Below, in pieces: positions 2,634 through 14,292 of a stretch of DNA of 20,333 bases (the stretch's first letter is position 1; every line of letters starts with the position of its first letter). The notes beneath the pieces are model-generated. The model made no database searches, was not told where the DNA came from, and was given only the letters and a program-made list of their open reading frames with translations. Origin of the DNA: a virus. Lineage: Duplodnaviria; Heunggongvirae; Uroviricota; Caudoviricetes. The stretch lies in IMG/VR virus record IMGVR_UViG_2778261452_000004, positions 1 through 20,333 of that record; one strand, given 5' to 3'. A program made the position numbers and the translations under genes.

Positions 2634-3377
2634 TTATTCTTGAGTAACACTTAAACTCATCTCATTGAATGCAGCCATCCTGTAACCTGCCGGTGTAACA
2701 CCAAAATAACTCCTGAATACGCTGATAAAATAAGATGTAAAATTATAGCCACACTGAGCAGCGATTCTGTTGATGGCGCAACGAGATTGATTCAACAGCA
2801 TTGCTGCCATTCTCATTCTCTCTGTAAGCAACAACTCACTGAAACAGGTGCCTTCTTCTTTCAGTCTTTTTTTTAACAAACTTTCACTGATACATAACCG
2901 CGAAGACACATCTCTCAGAGTCCAGTTTGCTGCAATGTCCGTACGAAACAATGCACTAAGCCTGTCACTAATATTGCCAATACACGCGGTCAGAAACGAC
3001 GAAAACATTTTCTCTGATGAGAAAAACGCCAGACACGAAAAGGAAAGCATTTCCGCTAAATTGTCCGTATGAATCTTTTCCTCACAAAGATAATCAATCA
3101 GGATGCCCATCAATTCTGCCTTCGGAAAACTCACGCAAAGATATCGTGGTATTTGCCGGACTAAAACTACATCCTGTTTTTCGTCTCCACACAACAGGTA
3201 ACGGCTAATTGTCGATTCACTGAGACTTATTCGCCGAAAACATTCCGAAAAGGGCAATAACGATCCAGCTCCCCCCCTGACAAGAAGTGCACTACCACTT
3301 TCAAGAGAGAGCTCTTTTCCTTCAAAGAGCACAACAAACGGGGAATGAACAAAAACAACAGAACAGGCTTCATTCAT
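2634..3377 (-). CDS. AraC/XylS-family transcriptional regulator (prophage moron), 247 aa
   Basis: C-terminal AraC-type HTH signature (…RIAAQCGYNFTSYFISVFRSYFGVTPAGYR). Track ORF 2634..3530 trimmed to ATG at 3377, because the upstream in-frame stretch contains a terminator hairpin and an AT-rich promoter-like segment. Confidence 0.8.
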   Translation of the reverse strand: MNEACSVVFVHSPFVVLFEGKELSLESGSALLVRGGAGSLLPFSECFRRISLSESTISRYLLCGDEKQDVVLVRQIPRYLCVSFPKAELMGILIDYLCEEKIHTDNLAEMLSFSCLAFFSSEKMFSSFLTACIGNISDRLSALFRTDIAANWTLRDVSSRLCISESLLKKRLKEEGTCFSELLLTERMRMAAMLLNQSRCAINRIAAQCGYNFTSYFISVFRSYFGVTPAGYRMAAFNEMSLSVTQE

Positions 3378-3499
3378 ATCAATTGCCCTGACATTACTGG
3401 TCACAAGATAAGTATATATCGATTTACAAAAATACAAGCCGAAAGACCAGTATTCGCAACCACCAGCACGTTTTATGTTCTCTGCCGTTTTTCGGACAT

Positions 3500-3521
3500 A
3501 AAAAACCCGCTCAATGGCGGG
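3500..3521 (-). terminator. Rho-independent terminator about 85 nt downstream of the Q-like gene (candidate tR')
   Basis: Minus strand reads cccgccattgagcggg followed by tttttt (plus strand 3501-3521: aaaaa cccgc tcaatg gcggg). Confidence 0.5.
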
Positions 3522-3606
3522 TTGTATCAAAGTTCATGCGCTTGGTTCACCTCGCGATACAGCTTTGCGAAGCTTAGCAAAATTGAAGCGGTTTATGCGT
3601 AAAAAA

Positions 3607-5501: not shown

Positions 5502-5657
5502 TTACTCCTCAGGTTCGTAAGCTGTGAAGACAGCGACCTCCGTCTGCCCGGTTCGGATTCGTACCTCGCAGAGGTCTTTCCTCGTTACCAGCGCCGTCAC
5601 AATGACGGTTAAACAGATGACGATCAGGGCGATTAACATCGCCTTTTGCTGCTTCAT
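5502..5657 (-). CDS. hok: Hok/Gef-family type I toxin, 51 aa
   Basis: MKQQKAMLIALIVICLTVIVTALVTRKDLCEVRIRTGQTEVAVFTAYEPEE matches HokD/Gef-type toxins as recalled. Track ORF 5502..5714 carries an in-frame 19-codon upstream extension; the canonical Hok start is ATG at 5657. Confidence 0.85.
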   Translation of the reverse strand: MKQQKAMLIALIVICLTVIVTALVTRKDLCEVRIRTGQTEVAVFTAYEPEE

Positions 5658-5830
5658 AGCCTGCTTCTCCTTGCCTTTCGACACGTAAGAGGCTAACCTA
5701 CATGTGCAAAGCATGAAATTGGCCTCAGATTAATGTTAAGCGTCTTGCCGGACGCGTAATGTTAACTGGGGCTTTTCTCTATCTGCCTTTTGGTGTTCAT
5801 GCCTGAGGCAGATAGCCTCAAGCACCCGCA
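5658..5830. promoter_or_regulatory. hok leader region; expected site of promoter, mok start and antisense Sok RNA (plus strand)
   Basis: Inference from the known hok/sok architecture; the region holds several hairpins (gcgtcttgccggacgc at about 5740-5755; atctgcct…aggcagat at about 5782-5816). Sok ends not determined. Confidence 0.3.
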
Positions 5831-6214
5831 GCAATTCTAACTATCCAATAGATCAATGCCAACTTCTTTTCCTGCAACATCTCTCATCATAAGTGACCGA
5901 AATTCATCCAATCAGCACAAAAGAAACATTTAAAGCGTGAATGCTACCGAACGTTCATTTCAATTACATCGTTTTGATTTTTAACAGTTTTCACCTCAAC
6001 AAATCAAATGGCATTAGCATTCATCATGGAAGAAAGACTGATAAAAATGATCATTTTCAATGACTTATGATCACACCGGGTATTGCCAAGTCATTCCTTT
6101 TACGCCAGGATACCCACAAGTGAGTAGTCGAGGAGAATTTGCCAATTTTTGCGAAATAAATTTCAATGTCCGAAGAACCATTAATTGTTAATTGATTCTG
6201 TATAAGGTATTAAC

Positions 6215-7312
6215 ATGACAATTTCATATATTCCTATTCTGAAAGCGAAACGTTCTGAGTTATCAGCTTTATCGCAGCTATCCATTGAAAAGAAATCAAA
6301 AATTTTGCCATTACTCGAAATTGAACCAGTGCCAATTGACCCTGATTCAGGTATTGCCTTAAAGAGTTATAACGAGACTCTTATAGAGTTCGGAAAGAAA
6401 GTCTCAAAATCTTGCTCAGATATGCAAGGTGTTTATATTGATGGATTATTAATTGAAGAGCATTTTATTTCTCCTGAAGATCATTACCCTATAATAAATG
6501 CGGTTAATCAAGTTAGAGATATGGGGATAAGAGTTATTCCTGTCAGTTCACCAACTCGCCCATCTAACTATAAAAGAGCGATTGATGAATTAATGCAGAA
6601 TGAAATATGCTTGAGATTAACCACGTTAGATCTGGTTAACCCACAATTAATAACGCATTACATTAATCATCTGGGAATTCCTTTATCAAATATTGATATA
6701 ATTATTGACTTAAGAGATGAGTTAACCGAGGATAAACTTAATTCCGGCGAACTATATACTTTGGCAATGGGATTGATAAACAATCTGGCGCACCTCAATG
6801 AATACAGAAAAGTGATTCTTTCTGGGGGTTCATTTCCTACAGATCTCAGTGATATTTCTGTTGGTCTATATTCTCAACCTCGAATCGAGTGGATTTTATG
6901 GCAGAGTTTAATGAATAGAAAAGAACTTGCCAGAAATGTGATTTATAGTGATTATGGAGTACAGCACCCCGACTTTAATAGGCTTTCGACGCGATTCCCT
7001 AGCGTATCTGCCAGCGTCAGATACTCTGGAGATAATGACTTTTGGGTATTTCGAGGAAGAGTAGCTAATCGCTTTGGTTATGAACAATATGGTAAACATA
7101 GTGAGGATATTCTTGCTCATCGAGAATATTCAGGGCCTACATTCTGTGCGGGAGATAGAGACATAGAATATTATGCAAACGAGTATCAAGCCTACAAAGC
7201 CAATCCCTCTGGTAACTATAAATTTGGTAGCCCAGAGGTATGGCGTAGGATTGGGCAAAACCATCACATAACTAAGGTTGTTGAGCAACTCGCCACTCTT
7301 TACGGGCTTTAA
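6215..7312 (+). CDS. 'Beta protein'/sce7725-family protein, 365 aa; candidate defence-module component
   Basis: Complete track ORF with AAGG ribosome-binding site; strongly AT-rich, A/T-ending codons unlike the flanking phage genes; N-terminus MTISYIPILKAKRSELSAL resembles the Beta_protein family as recalled (unverified). Confidence 0.8.
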   Translation: MTISYIPILKAKRSELSALSQLSIEKKSKILPLLEIEPVPIDPDSGIALKSYNETLIEFGKKVSKSCSDMQGVYIDGLLIEEHFISPEDHYPIINAVNQVRDMGIRVIPVSSPTRPSNYKRAIDELMQNEICLRLTTLDLVNPQLITHYINHLGIPLSNIDIIIDLRDELTEDKLNSGELYTLAMGLINNLAHLNEYRKVILSGGSFPTDLSDISVGLYSQPRIEWILWQSLMNRKELARNVIYSDYGVQHPDFNRLSTRFPSVSASVRYSGDNDFWVFRGRVANRFGYEQYGKHSEDILAHREYSGPTFCAGDRDIEYYANEYQAYKANPSGNYKFGSPEVWRRIGQNHHITKVVEQLATLYGL

Positions 7313-7850
7313 GTTTAACTCGAACAGCTTCACGAAGCTCGCCAACATCCATACTATTGGCGAGTTTTGACCATAAGACGCGTTTAGGTTTATTTTTCAA
7401 ATTCTGTAGCTCCCCTGCATCACTTAATAGGGAAAGCAATTCATCTTTCCAAAGAAGCATTGTTAAGGAAAGTTTGTCCACTTGTGGATTCAACTTGCTA
7501 GTTCGAATTGTTTTTAAATGGATACCTTGCCGTGCACCTTGCGTAACTTGCTTTATCCCCCACCATGATGGAACTATGCTTAAAGCATCATAAAGATGGC
7601 AATCAGAGACAACCAACGTTACTTTATCCATCACAGATGAGTAATGTTGCACCTGCGCTGGTAATCTGAGCAAGTTATCACTCTTGCTCTTCAACTCATA
7701 ACCATGTATAAGCCCATTGATCACTGCTATATCAGCTCTGCTAGCCCCTAGATTCATCGTAAACTCATCAATGATTAGGGTGTCAGGATCTTTATGATGA
7801 TCTCTCAGAATCTTGGCATGCACAGCCTTTCTTACATCAATGTCTCTCAT
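7272..7850 (-). CDS. sce7726-like protein with PD-(D/E)xK nuclease-like motif, 192 aa; candidate partner of the beta-like gene
   Basis: Complete track ORF convergent with the beta-like gene and overlapping it by 41 bp at the 3' ends; motif IIDEF…RADIAVINGLIHGYELKSK (D40, E52-x-K54) fits a restriction-endonuclease-like core. Confidence 0.8.
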   Translation of the reverse strand: MRDIDVRKAVHAKILRDHHKDPDTLIIDEFTMNLGASRADIAVINGLIHGYELKSKSDNLLRLPAQVQHYSSVMDKVTLVVSDCHLYDALSIVPSWWGIKQVTQGARQGIHLKTIRTSKLNPQVDKLSLTMLLWKDELLSLLSDAGELQNLKNKPKRVLWSKLANSMDVGELREAVRVKLKARKEWRVAQQP

Positions 7851-8155
7851 ACCATAGTTGCGCTTTCATCGACTCTCTCAAGCCATGATTCTATATCATG
7901 GTTCGCATGAATGCCATTTGATATGACCAGTGGTTAAACATTGCACAGAAAAGTAGATGTGTATTTTAACAAAAGCAATGACGGCTAACCATGTTGGTAT
8001 GTCGATAAAATGTTTCAACGTAAGCATTATCTGTTCCGCCCTTTCAGACGGCCTCCTGATGTTCTGAGGGTGCAGAATCCCTCCGGTTAAGGATTTAATA
8101 AAAATCGTTTCTGATTTAAATCTTCAGTATTTAGTTGTTAGTCGGTTTATAGCCT

Positions 8156-11556: not shown

Positions 11557-11979
11557 TTAATGAACAATGACAGAATCGTCGGAAGAACCGCCGCCGCTGA
11601 AATGCGCTTTCCGGTAAACGGCCTGGACTGCATCATCATGCGCATCAATTGCCGTACTTAACGCTTCCTGCGCCGCCAGTAATGCACGGCGTTCCAGGGT
11701 ATCGAAGATGCAGAGTCGGTGACGCAACTCGCGCGGAAGGATTGCCAGAATTGCTGGGATCAGCTTCTGAATTTTTTCTCTTTGCGTTTTCGTTTCACCT
11801 TTCAACCAACGGTGATAGATATTCTGCTGATTGTTCCAGTCCTTGCCTGGAACCAGGGGCAATTCGCCGCCCCCCTGGCGCAGATATTCTTCAGTAATTG
11901 CATTGGCTACCCATGCCTGCCCTTTTTCGGCTGCCAGGGCAAACAACACTGATTCGATGTGCTCATGCTTGATTTTCAT
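11557..11979 (-). CDS. ydaT: YdaT-like protein (Rac), 140 aa
   Basis: Complete 140-aa track ORF directly downstream of the Cro-like ydaS; length and sequence match Rac YdaT as recalled. Confidence 0.8.
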   Translation of the reverse strand: MKIKHEHIESVLFALAAEKGQAWVANAITEEYLRQGGGELPLVPGKDWNNQQNIYHRWLKGETKTQREKIQKLIPAILAILPRELRHRLCIFDTLERRALLAAQEALSTAIDAHDDAVQAVYRKAHFSGGGSSDDSVIVH

Positions 11980-12001
11980 GAATCATTTGCCTCTTGATGT
12001 T

Positions 12002-12298
12002 TCAGGTATGATCAAATGAGGATTTGTTACTGTCATTTAGTTGCTTCACTGACATATTCTGCGAACAACATGCCGAACGTCGTAAATATGACCAGTCAAT
12101 ATCAGGACGAAGCTCTTCGCACAGAACCTCACCTCTTGTTGCTCGTTCAATTGCTGGACATCTCTCGGCAGGCAATTGACGTACCCCTTTGATCCATTGA
12201 TTTACGCTTGGAGGTGATACACCTAAAAGCCTAGCCATTGCTGATTGCCCACCGACAACAGCACAAGCTTGCTTGAATGAATAGTTCTCTTTTTTCAT
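12002..12298 (-). CDS. ydaS: YdaS-like Cro-type HTH regulator, 98 aa
   Basis: HTH segment QACAVVGGQSAMARLLGVSPPSVNQWIKG; divergent from the repressor gene across an operator-bearing intergenic region. Confidence 0.85.
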   Translation of the reverse strand: MKKENYSFKQACAVVGGQSAMARLLGVSPPSVNQWIKGVRQLPAERCPAIERATRGEVLCEELRPDIDWSYLRRSACCSQNMSVKQLNDSNKSSFDHT

Positions 12299-13507: not shown

Positions 13508-14017
13508 TTATTCGAAGCGCTTAGTGCAAGGGTTCCATGCTTCAAATATTAGTTCCTCATAGTCGGGATCGAGTTGAAAATGGGAGCTATTGCCTAATGA
13601 ACACTTTCTAACAAAACGAATTATTCCCATCCTGACAAGCAAGGCTGTACTTTGATTTTCAGGACAAAGCGTAAGTAGGTCATTGAACTGGAGGAATGAT
13701 TCAATAATACGAATTTGTTCTGCATTTAGCGAATTCAGATTTTTTAGCATTTTGCGCTTTTTTACAAAATCCCGAATCAGGTAGAACATTCTCAAGAAAA
13801 GGATTACTACTCTATCAAGGATTAAAGTCGAGACAAAGGCTATGCTGAAGCAAAATAGCTGCATGGAATATGGAATGGCGCTTTTCTTTTCCAGATACTC
13901 TGACAAGTTTTCTGGTACCAACATTAATATCAGAAAAAATATAACTATAGTAATCATAAACCGACTAACTGATTTTTCGGCAAAGAATTTTGCCAATGTT
14001 AAAAGACTTTCTAACAT
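13508..14017 (-). CDS. sieB: Superinfection exclusion protein SieB-like membrane protein, about 169 aa
   Basis: Track ORF 13508..14140 trimmed to ATG at 14017; two strongly hydrophobic helices; position between the pL-proximal small genes and kil corresponds to sieB in Rac/lambda. Start uncertain. Confidence 0.65.
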   Translation of the reverse strand: MLESLLTLAKFFAEKSVSRFMITIVIFFLILMLVPENLSEYLEKKSAIPYSMQLFCFSIAFVSTLILDRVVILFLRMFYLIRDFVKKRKMLKNLNSLNAEQIRIIESFLQFNDLLTLCPENQSTALLVRMGIIRFVRKCSLGNSSHFQLDPDYEELIFEAWNPCTKRFE

Positions 14018-14292
14018 TTCAATAACTCTCAACTGTAAGGGTATTGAAATGTTAACACAAGCTCTCGCTGTAGGGGTATAGCAGAGACCACCGAAGCCCG
14101 GAGGTGGTGAAATAAAACCGGGCACAACACGAAGGCGCATTTCCGATATCCATAAAGAGTCGGTTTTGTCTGTTAAATTTAAATGGTGGGAGTGCGCCTC
14201 CGGTTGTAAATAACGACATTGCTGTGTGTAGTCTTGGCGGCATCAGTTTTTTCTTGAAGTTCGGCTGATGTCCGCCCCTTTTTAAAGTGAAT

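Follow-up and report, generated by a model that had tools for sequence, protein, structure and literature searches.

We examined a 20,333-nucleotide stretch of a Caudoviricetes genome (IMG/VR record IMGVR_UViG_2778261452_000004, positions 1 to 20,333; hereafter the window), in which two convergent genes encode a Beta-family protein with a predicted TIM-barrel fold and a cII-like/sce7726 predicted nuclease. The open reading frame (ORF) on the plus strand, ORF1, occupies positions 6215..7312 and encodes 365 amino acids. ORF2, on the minus strand, occupies positions 7272..7850 and encodes 192 amino acids. Both start with ATG and are complete. Their 3' ends overlap by 41 bp (7272..7312), a segment that encodes residues 353-365 and the stop codon of ORF1 on one strand and residues 181-192 and the stop codon of ORF2 on the other. 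A first-pass annotation, made from the sequence alone, had described this arrangement and proposed a two-gene anti-phage module, and the coordinates agree with its description. It had also remarked that the two genes are AT-richer than the surrounding genes and that each has an AT-rich upstream region, which is the case. The GC content is 0.373 for ORF1 and 0.413 for ORF2 (0.298 and 0.363, respectively, at third codon positions, GC3), and 0.38 and 0.39 for the respective upstream regions. The flanking phage genes range from 0.48 to 0.53 (GC3, 0.46-0.61), and the average of the window is 0.452. The low GC content of ORF1 and ORF2 points to horizontal acquisition. Low values are also found elsewhere in the window, in an AraC-family ORF and in int (approximately 0.42-0.43).

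As for ORF2, its proposed membership in the sce7726 family was supported by the NCBIfam profile NF033832 (sce7726_fam), which aligned with residues 1-184 over profile positions 1-183 of 184 (E 3.2e-56, 190.1 bits, cut-off 70). The PADLOC cll model for gop-beta-cII also matched (E 1.4e-28), and a cluster representative with 99% identity carries PF26915, a family named Phage_P4_cII. In BLASTP, ORF2 and P4 cII shared 28% identity (E 2e-17), ORF2 lacking the C-terminal 80 residues of P4 cII, and P4 cII itself is annotated as sce7726. The link to P4 gop-beta-cII had initially been drawn through the beta-type protein; with ORF2 itself a homolog of cII, it is stronger than originally claimed. The previously noted D40-x11-E52-x-K54 arrangement is exact and comes after the IIDE29F strand of ORF2. 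Residues E29, D40, E52, K54, Q66 and Y70 were invariant in 41 ORF2 homologs, and Q66-x-x-x-Y70 constitutes what we take to be a RecB-type motif. Structure prediction, recommended earlier as a check on the fold, produced a restriction-endonuclease-like core. In the model, ORF2 has a PD-(D/E)xK alpha/beta core fold with a small C-terminal helical domain beside it, and the RecB-like active site appears intact, making the protein a predicted nuclease. ORF2 shares its predicted core fold and the D...ExK and QxxxY residues with RecB-like and MmcB-like PD-(D/E)xK nucleases (SPO1766 (3dnx), Can2, NucS and type II restriction endonucleases), but is devoid of a CARF, helicase or other sensor domain. A profile search of PDB chains found no sequence-level relative. 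The cII-like family comprises approximately 5,400 clusters at 50% identity, essentially all of them stand-alone proteins of approximately 190-210 residues, and no domain fusions were present among the best 150 representatives.

ORF1 matched Pfam PF14350 (Beta_protein) over residues 5-356, corresponding to profile positions 1-341 of 342 (E 2.4e-52, 179 bits, cut-off 27), in accordance with the family originally proposed for it. Two PADLOC models for PD-Lambda-2_C matched ORF1 over their full length (PDLC03983, E 1.4e-41; PDLC03984, E 3e-38), and the 'beta' model gave a weak match (2e-4). BLASTP against P4 beta gave 23% identity (E 1e-8). On the other hand, the equation of Beta with the sce7725 family did not hold. 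The profile NF033831 (sce7725_fam) reached only 12.3 bits against a cut-off of 60 (E 0.099), through the N-terminal 35 residues alone, which ruled out membership of ORF1, and none of ten other Beta partners matched it. Compared with the NCBIfam sce7725/sce7726 pair, ORF2 is a bona fide member of sce7726_fam, whereas its partner here belongs to Pfam Beta_protein and not to sce7725_fam. By these profile matches, the pair in the window can be assigned to the Beta_protein and sce7726/Phage_P4_cII families, under which it is already named in RefSeq.

The AlphaFold2 model of ORF1 (predicted local distance difference test score, 91.8; predicted template modelling score, 0.91) displays an alternating beta/alpha pattern, and the protein is predicted to form a (beta/alpha)8 TIM barrel. 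We could not identify a characterized relative in a sequence search of PDB chains or in a Foldseek search of BFVD, where the sole real match was the Beta homolog of a Gordonia phage. Approximately 25 columns of the Beta alignment are invariant across sequences down to 25% identity. Most of the residues concerned are Lys, Arg, Asp, Glu or His, situated where strands end or immediately thereafter. Such an enzyme-like pattern suggests that the mouth of the barrel is catalytic or binds a ligand. One rival explanation is a restriction-modification-like system, in which Beta is a TIM-barrel enzyme modifying DNA or a nucleotide (compare the TGT/DpdA transglycosylases) and the cII-like nuclease cuts according to the absence or presence of the mark; we regard this explanation as unlikely. 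The first-pass annotation was aware of no mechanistic description of the pair, and our search of the searchable literature on the biochemistry of Beta and cII likewise found no mechanistic work.

The occurrence of the pair was surveyed in one genome per species. A profile scan with ORF2 gave 450 relatives, and the best 80 loci were examined. These loci span Proteobacteria, Firmicutes, Actinobacteria, Acidobacteria, Myxococcota, Chloroflexota, Gastranaerophilales and lineages of the candidate phyla radiation (CPR). A convergent Beta-family ORF was present beside the cII-like gene in 77 of the 80, and two of the three exceptions were contig ends. A further survey covered about 35 viral loci; when Beta was taken as the starting point on viral contigs, every intact Beta gene with enough flanking sequence had a convergent cII-like gene. 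The earlier statement that the two families occur as a pair thus holds in cellular and viral genomes alike. In the Gordonia phages Powerball and DumpsterDude, the pair overlaps in the same way and is located between HicAB and the integrase. In enterobacteria, the bare pair is found beside hokD in Rac-like prophages, in the lysis-terminase gap of lambdoid phages, and in an island bearing primase, AlpA and SLT genes. It is also present on plasmids and on chromosomal islands without phage genes. The nearest large neighbours in approximately 60 species loci include integrases and genes for conjugation, transposition and terminase. Single strong matches among neighbours were to KwaB, type II and type III methyltransferases, dGTPase, DitA, MzaA, PDC-S11 and PDC-S15, and the Halomonas copy sits between HsdR, AbiEi and a NERD-UvrD helicase.

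The two genes are interlocked as well as adjacent. Measured between the stop codons, the genes overlap in 75 of the 77 species loci, with a median of 53 bp and a range of -39 to 167. The length of the overlap is 2 modulo 3 in 75 of these 77 loci and in all scorable viral loci, corresponding to one fixed relative frame. Furthermore, the G-x-N-H-H motif of Beta and the K-x-R-x-x-W motif of cII, which lie on opposite strands, maintain a constant register of 58 nucleotides in 42 of 47 scorable loci. This fixed register indicates that the overlap is an ancient dual-coding segment rather than a local accident. In P4, beta and cII are also convergent but are separated by a 27-bp gap with a terminator, in contrast to the 41-bp overlap in the window.

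Two validated defence systems of E. coli contain a Beta-family protein. The gop-beta-cII system of P4 confers protection from lambda and P1, and its Gop protein is toxic when Beta is missing (Rousset 2022, PMC9122126). The system kills the cell upon expression of the phage gene orf184 (Silas 2023, bioRxiv 10.1101/2023.04.06.535777). In PD-lambda-2, protein B is toxic and is neutralized by protein A, whereas defence, but not neutralization, depends on the Beta-like protein C (Vassallo 2022, PMC9519451). The locus in the window resembles gop-beta-cII in encoding Beta-family and cII/sce7726-family proteins convergently on a mobile element. It differs in lacking gop, in the length of the cII-like protein (192 residues, against 264 for P4 cII), and in its carrier, a lambdoid Rac-type prophage rather than the psu-int hotspot of P4. 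None of the surveyed loci other than P4 was found to have gop, and tblastn of P4 Gop against the window gave nothing below E 1.4. We also considered whether a small gene resembling gop might be hidden upstream of ORF1. The two tiny ORFs found there (40 and 43 amino acids) are conserved in this element alone and have no PHROG match, and the idea was rejected. Because gop was looked for and is absent, the pair is not a member of the three-gene P4 system. With PD-lambda-2, the locus has in common the Beta-family protein (C in that system), and many loci with A/B/C-type genes end in the same convergent cII-like gene, although PD-lambda-2 was defined without it. The HigB-like protein A and the toxic Xre-M78 peptidase B have no counterpart in the window, as no ORF of at least 60 amino acids is present upstream of ORF1 on its strand. 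The absence of A and B places the pair outside PD-lambda-2.

The genes that accompany Beta elsewhere were also examined. PD-Lambda-2_B, with an Xre helix-turn-helix (HTH) domain and an M78 peptidase, precedes Beta in 13-14 of the 80 loci (E down to 1.8e-150), and in 7 of those the HigB-like PD-Lambda-2_A protein precedes Beta as well. All three contexts chosen by way of PD-lambda-2B (Pseudomonas, Chromobacterium and Halomonas) have the order DUF6932, Xre-M78, Beta and convergent cII. In loci L152 (3468-4004), L154 (3537-3983) and L155 (3489-4004), DUF6932 stands ahead of PD-lambda-2B and replaces the HigB-like PD-lambda-2A, indicating that the four-gene form has an exchangeable first position. 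On rhizobial plasmids, PD-lambda-2B lies within 1-2 kb of the convergent Beta/cII pair. A conserved third gene was sought among the flanking ORFs and rejected: apart from PD-lambda-2 A/B (7-14 loci), the clusters reflected nothing but synteny between close relatives. In Stenotrophomonas, Beta is preceded by ORFs of 400-440 amino acids; these have no family match and were likewise set aside, as they look like lineage synteny. Across phyla and in phages, the two genes most commonly occur as the bare pair. Beta-cII is thus probably the conserved core shared by gop-beta-cII and PD-lambda-2; Gop in P4, and HigB or DUF6932 together with the Xre-M78 peptidase genes, are lineage-specific additions to the pair.

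Two further observations concern these upstream genes. Directly upstream of Beta, two loci (L034, 1905-2570; L036, 4521-5285) encode a LexA/CI-type HTH-S24 protein, and L026, L040, L046, L047 and others encode the Xre-M78 protein PD-lambda-2B. The presence of two types of repressor-peptidase before Beta suggests that the core is under damage- or induction-responsive control in those variants. On Acinetobacter plasmids (NZ_CP014478.1 and related), a PD-lambda-2B homolog and a cII-like gene lie approximately 11 kb apart, and the cII-like gene adjoins an annotated 'hypothetical protein', not a beta family protein.

In E. coli, the pair was present in 93 of 5,426 complete genomes (1.7%), and 92 of the copies are at least 99% identical. 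Their products are named 'beta family protein' and 'sce7726 family protein' in RefSeq. Phage Rac-SA53 also has the pair, and its record already notes 'beta' and 'CII phage-like protein', so that the pair is not an unrecognized one. The window itself is a mosaic Rac-type lambdoid prophage of E. coli, and no complete E. coli genome matched it as a whole. Of 4,730 E. coli genomes matching any part of the query, nearly all by way of the hokD flank, 91 have the pair in this slot; in most E. coli prophages with the hokD flank, the same slot is occupied by other small phage genes. The pair is therefore optional cargo, dispensable for these prophages. This bears on the explanation that the pair serves the life cycle of its carrier and not the immunity of the host, for instance through recombination, counter-defence or the processing of replication intermediates. 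The pair does lie in a nin-like early region, between the replication genes and a Q-like gene; the homolog in a Gordonia phage is annotated as 'exonuclease', and the cII-like gene of phage Mx4 is situated inside a co-directional gene block. Besides its dispensability, however, the orientation of the pair is against, or independent of, the surrounding phage operon, and pairs are also found on plasmids and islands devoid of phage genes. We consider a function of this kind quite improbable.

The interpretation we favour, with confidence that is about evenly balanced, is that the locus is a minimal, gop-less form of the P4 beta-cII module, with an anti-phage function, that a Rac-type prophage acquired horizontally and carries as cargo. 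As far as its sequence can tell, we are dealing with a near-obligate, interlocked pair of a TIM-barrel protein and a RecB-like predicted nuclease, homologous to parts of two validated systems of the abortive infection (Abi) type. The positions occupied by the pair (the hokD flank, the lysis-terminase gap, the primase island, the HicAB-integrase interval and the HsdR/AbiEi neighbourhood) are typical cargo positions of defence genes and fit this interpretation, as do the intact copies of the two genes in 92 E. coli genomes, which are at least 99% identical. The pair would be expressed from the prophage and act as a superinfection-exclusion or abortive-infection module. The cII-like protein would be a DNA nuclease effector, harmless alone. 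Beta would sense an infection cue, or make or bind a phosphate-bearing ligand, and thereby license the nuclease, and convergent transcription across the shared 3' ends would couple the expression of both genes. We hold these individual roles with less confidence than the defence function itself.

Whether the nuclease is harmful without its partner bears on a rival explanation, an addiction or toxin-antitoxin module in which the cII-like nuclease is the toxin and Beta the antitoxin, stabilizing the mobile element rather than defending against phages. P4 Beta neutralizes the toxic Gop and is for this reason referred to as an antitoxin (Ghisotti 1990 as summarised in PMC9122126; PMC9519451). The pair is carried by prophages, plasmids and islands, and other toxin-antitoxin loci (hokD and HicAB) are among its neighbours. 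However, cII-like genes that are intact and retain all catalytic residues occur where Beta is interrupted by IS1 (the viable E. coli PEC209 and viral contig L124), truncated (Lysinibacillus, L058) or absent (Xenorhabdus, L013, and phage Mx4). These genes are indirect evidence, from genomes, that the nuclease is not lethal alone. Moreover, the invariant, mostly charged residues at the strand ends of the Beta barrel exceed what a simple binding antitoxin would need, and neutralization of the toxin does not require PD-lambda-2C (PMC9519451). The need for PD-lambda-2C in defence but not in neutralization fits a sensor or activator role for Beta. Taking into account the orphan cII-like genes, the enzyme-like conservation of Beta and the role of PD-lambda-2C, we favour a licensed effector over a toxin with its antitoxin, and regard the addiction module as rather unlikely. 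One of the orphans shows a different neighbourhood. In Xenorhabdus koppenhoeferi (L013, 6001-7810), the cII-like gene is followed by ORFs of 165 and 241 amino acids on the same strand, with no convergent Beta; by eye these look kinase-like and PP2C-type phosphatase-like, and may be an alternative partner set.

It is also conceivable that the locus is an inert remnant of a decayed three- or four-gene system, non-functional after loss of its effector (gop or PD-lambda-2 A/B). The toxic activity of both validated relatives resides in the extra genes, the window lacks gop, and IS1 insertions recur in the E. coli copies. We nevertheless consider a remnant improbable. The bare pair is the commonest form across phyla and phages, and neither ORF is shortened relative to its profile; the catalytic residues are all retained, as is the frame of the overlap. 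In addition, 92 of the 93 E. coli copies are at least 99% identical, and PEC209, with IS1 in beta, is the only disrupted copy among those listed individually. As for the insertions themselves, IS1 lies inside the Beta gene in PEC209 (L157, 2098-2795) and in two IMG/VR contigs (L124 and L126), and just upstream of the cII-like start in Rac-SA53 (L086, 5575-6340). None of these four cases has IS1 inside the cII-like gene. The recurrent hits on Beta could reflect a preference of IS1 for AT-rich targets, or selection against Beta.

Several points weigh against a defensive role for the locus. The resemblance to P4 is distant (only 23% and 28% identity of ORF1 and ORF2 to beta and cII, respectively). 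The component demonstrated to be toxic in each validated relative, Gop or PD-lambda-2B, is absent from the window. The validated PD-lambda-2 clone extends approximately 390 bp past gene C, which leaves no room for an entire convergent cII-like gene. Should ECOR42 carry such a gene, PD-lambda-2 defence worked without it; the ECOR42 locus was sought, and no E. coli member was found among the listed matches to PD-lambda-2B, which is a large family. Consensus scans for promoters and terminators at the locus remained at chance level. The 80 loci examined among the 450 relatives were found with two conserved peptides and are biased to close relatives of ORF2. Finally, the neighbours fit a mobile-element or defence-island setting, but come from a survey without a background control, and we claim no enrichment.

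A broader version of the proposal, which we put forward only tentatively, holds that Beta and cII form an ancient two-protein immune module able to act autonomously, around which both gop-beta-cII and PD-lambda-2 are functionally built. The TIM-barrel Beta would then be a kind of enzyme or ligand sensor new to defence, licensing a minimal RecB-like nuclease. The conserved dual-coding 3' overlap would keep the two genes together and cross-regulate them by antisense transcription, and Gop, HigB or DUF6932 and the Xre-peptidase genes would be add-on regulators or second effectors.

Concerning expression, each gene has its own AT-rich upstream region, presumed to contain its promoter. The region upstream of ORF1 (5715..6214, plus strand) is non-coding, has a GC content of 0.382, and is conserved solely within this E. 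coli element, as are the two tiny ORFs in it. The consensus scan, in which site counts are at chance level, reported no promoter-like site on the plus strand of this region. Upstream of ORF2 (7851..8155, minus strand; GC content, 0.39), a sigma-70-like site is present at 7917-7888 on the minus strand (ATGGCA-18-TAGAAT, 9 of 12 matches), again of a kind whose counts are at chance level. In Rac-SA53, IS1 is inserted in the equivalent stretch. Past the stop codon of ORF1 by 21 nucleotides, and inside the coding sequence of ORF2, a hairpin with a 13-bp stem can form on the plus strand (7333..7369), with a minimum free energy of -18.9 kcal/mol (z -3.0 against shuffled sequences). The hairpin is a possible end or stabilizer of the ORF1 transcript, and as such would set the length of the antisense overlap. 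As the genes converge and overlap, their two mRNAs are complementary over at least 41 nucleotides, and the complementary stretch would be nearer 100 nucleotides if ORF1 transcripts end at the hairpin. Judging from this arrangement, antisense coupling of ORF1 and ORF2 expression is plausible.

The remainder of the window is organized as follows, from right to left. The genes int, RecT and RecE are followed by a weak SieB-like ORF and the YdaS/YdaT immunity region, and then by DUF1376, DnaC-like replication genes, DUF1627, DUF977, two small ORFs and the pair. Beyond the pair are hok/mok, DUF1367, DUF1364, the Q-like DUF1133 gene and the AraC-family ORF, followed by the holin, a GH108 lysin, Bor and DUF1398. 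The hok/mok (hokD-type) type I toxin locus (5502-5714, minus strand) adjoins the pair directly. The first-pass annotation had counted a neighbouring toxin locus in favour of a defence system. The adjacency stands but adds little, since most E. coli genomes have this hok flank irrespective of the pair. Three other regions of the prophage are worth recording. The AraC-family HTH ORF (2634-3530, minus strand; 298 amino acids; GC content, 0.416) lies between the Q-like DUF1133 gene and the holin, and looks like a second low-GC cargo gene. The ORF at 13508-14140 (minus strand) matches SieB just below the Pfam cut-off (25 against 26 bits), and might give the prophage a second exclusion function. The YdaT and YdaS 'toxin' family ORFs (11557-12298, minus strand) occupy the Cro/cII position of the immunity region; their family names suggest toxins, and their position suggests regulators.

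The individual families and their names were known beforehand. What appears to be undescribed so far is that the two-gene form is a widespread core, that Gop and PD-lambda-2 A/B are add-ons to it, and that the frame of the overlap is conserved across phyla. Two validated E. coli defence systems share Beta, and the survey moves the question from three-gene systems to a two-gene core, a near-obligate and interlocked pair that extends from Enterobacteria to Firmicutes, Actinobacteria, Chloroflexota and CPR bacteria. The phenotypes of the known systems come from genes that are lineage-specific extras. Current detection rules appear to be written for three genes, in which case they would miss the common two-gene form. 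Should the pair be inert without gop or PD-lambda-2 A/B, ORF1 and ORF2 would be annotated family members of no special interest. Comprising approximately 1.6 kb of coding sequence with flanks of its own in an E. coli background, the Rac-prophage pair lends itself to tests as a minimal object, and with it the question of what Beta and cII do becomes a directly testable two-gene problem in E. coli.

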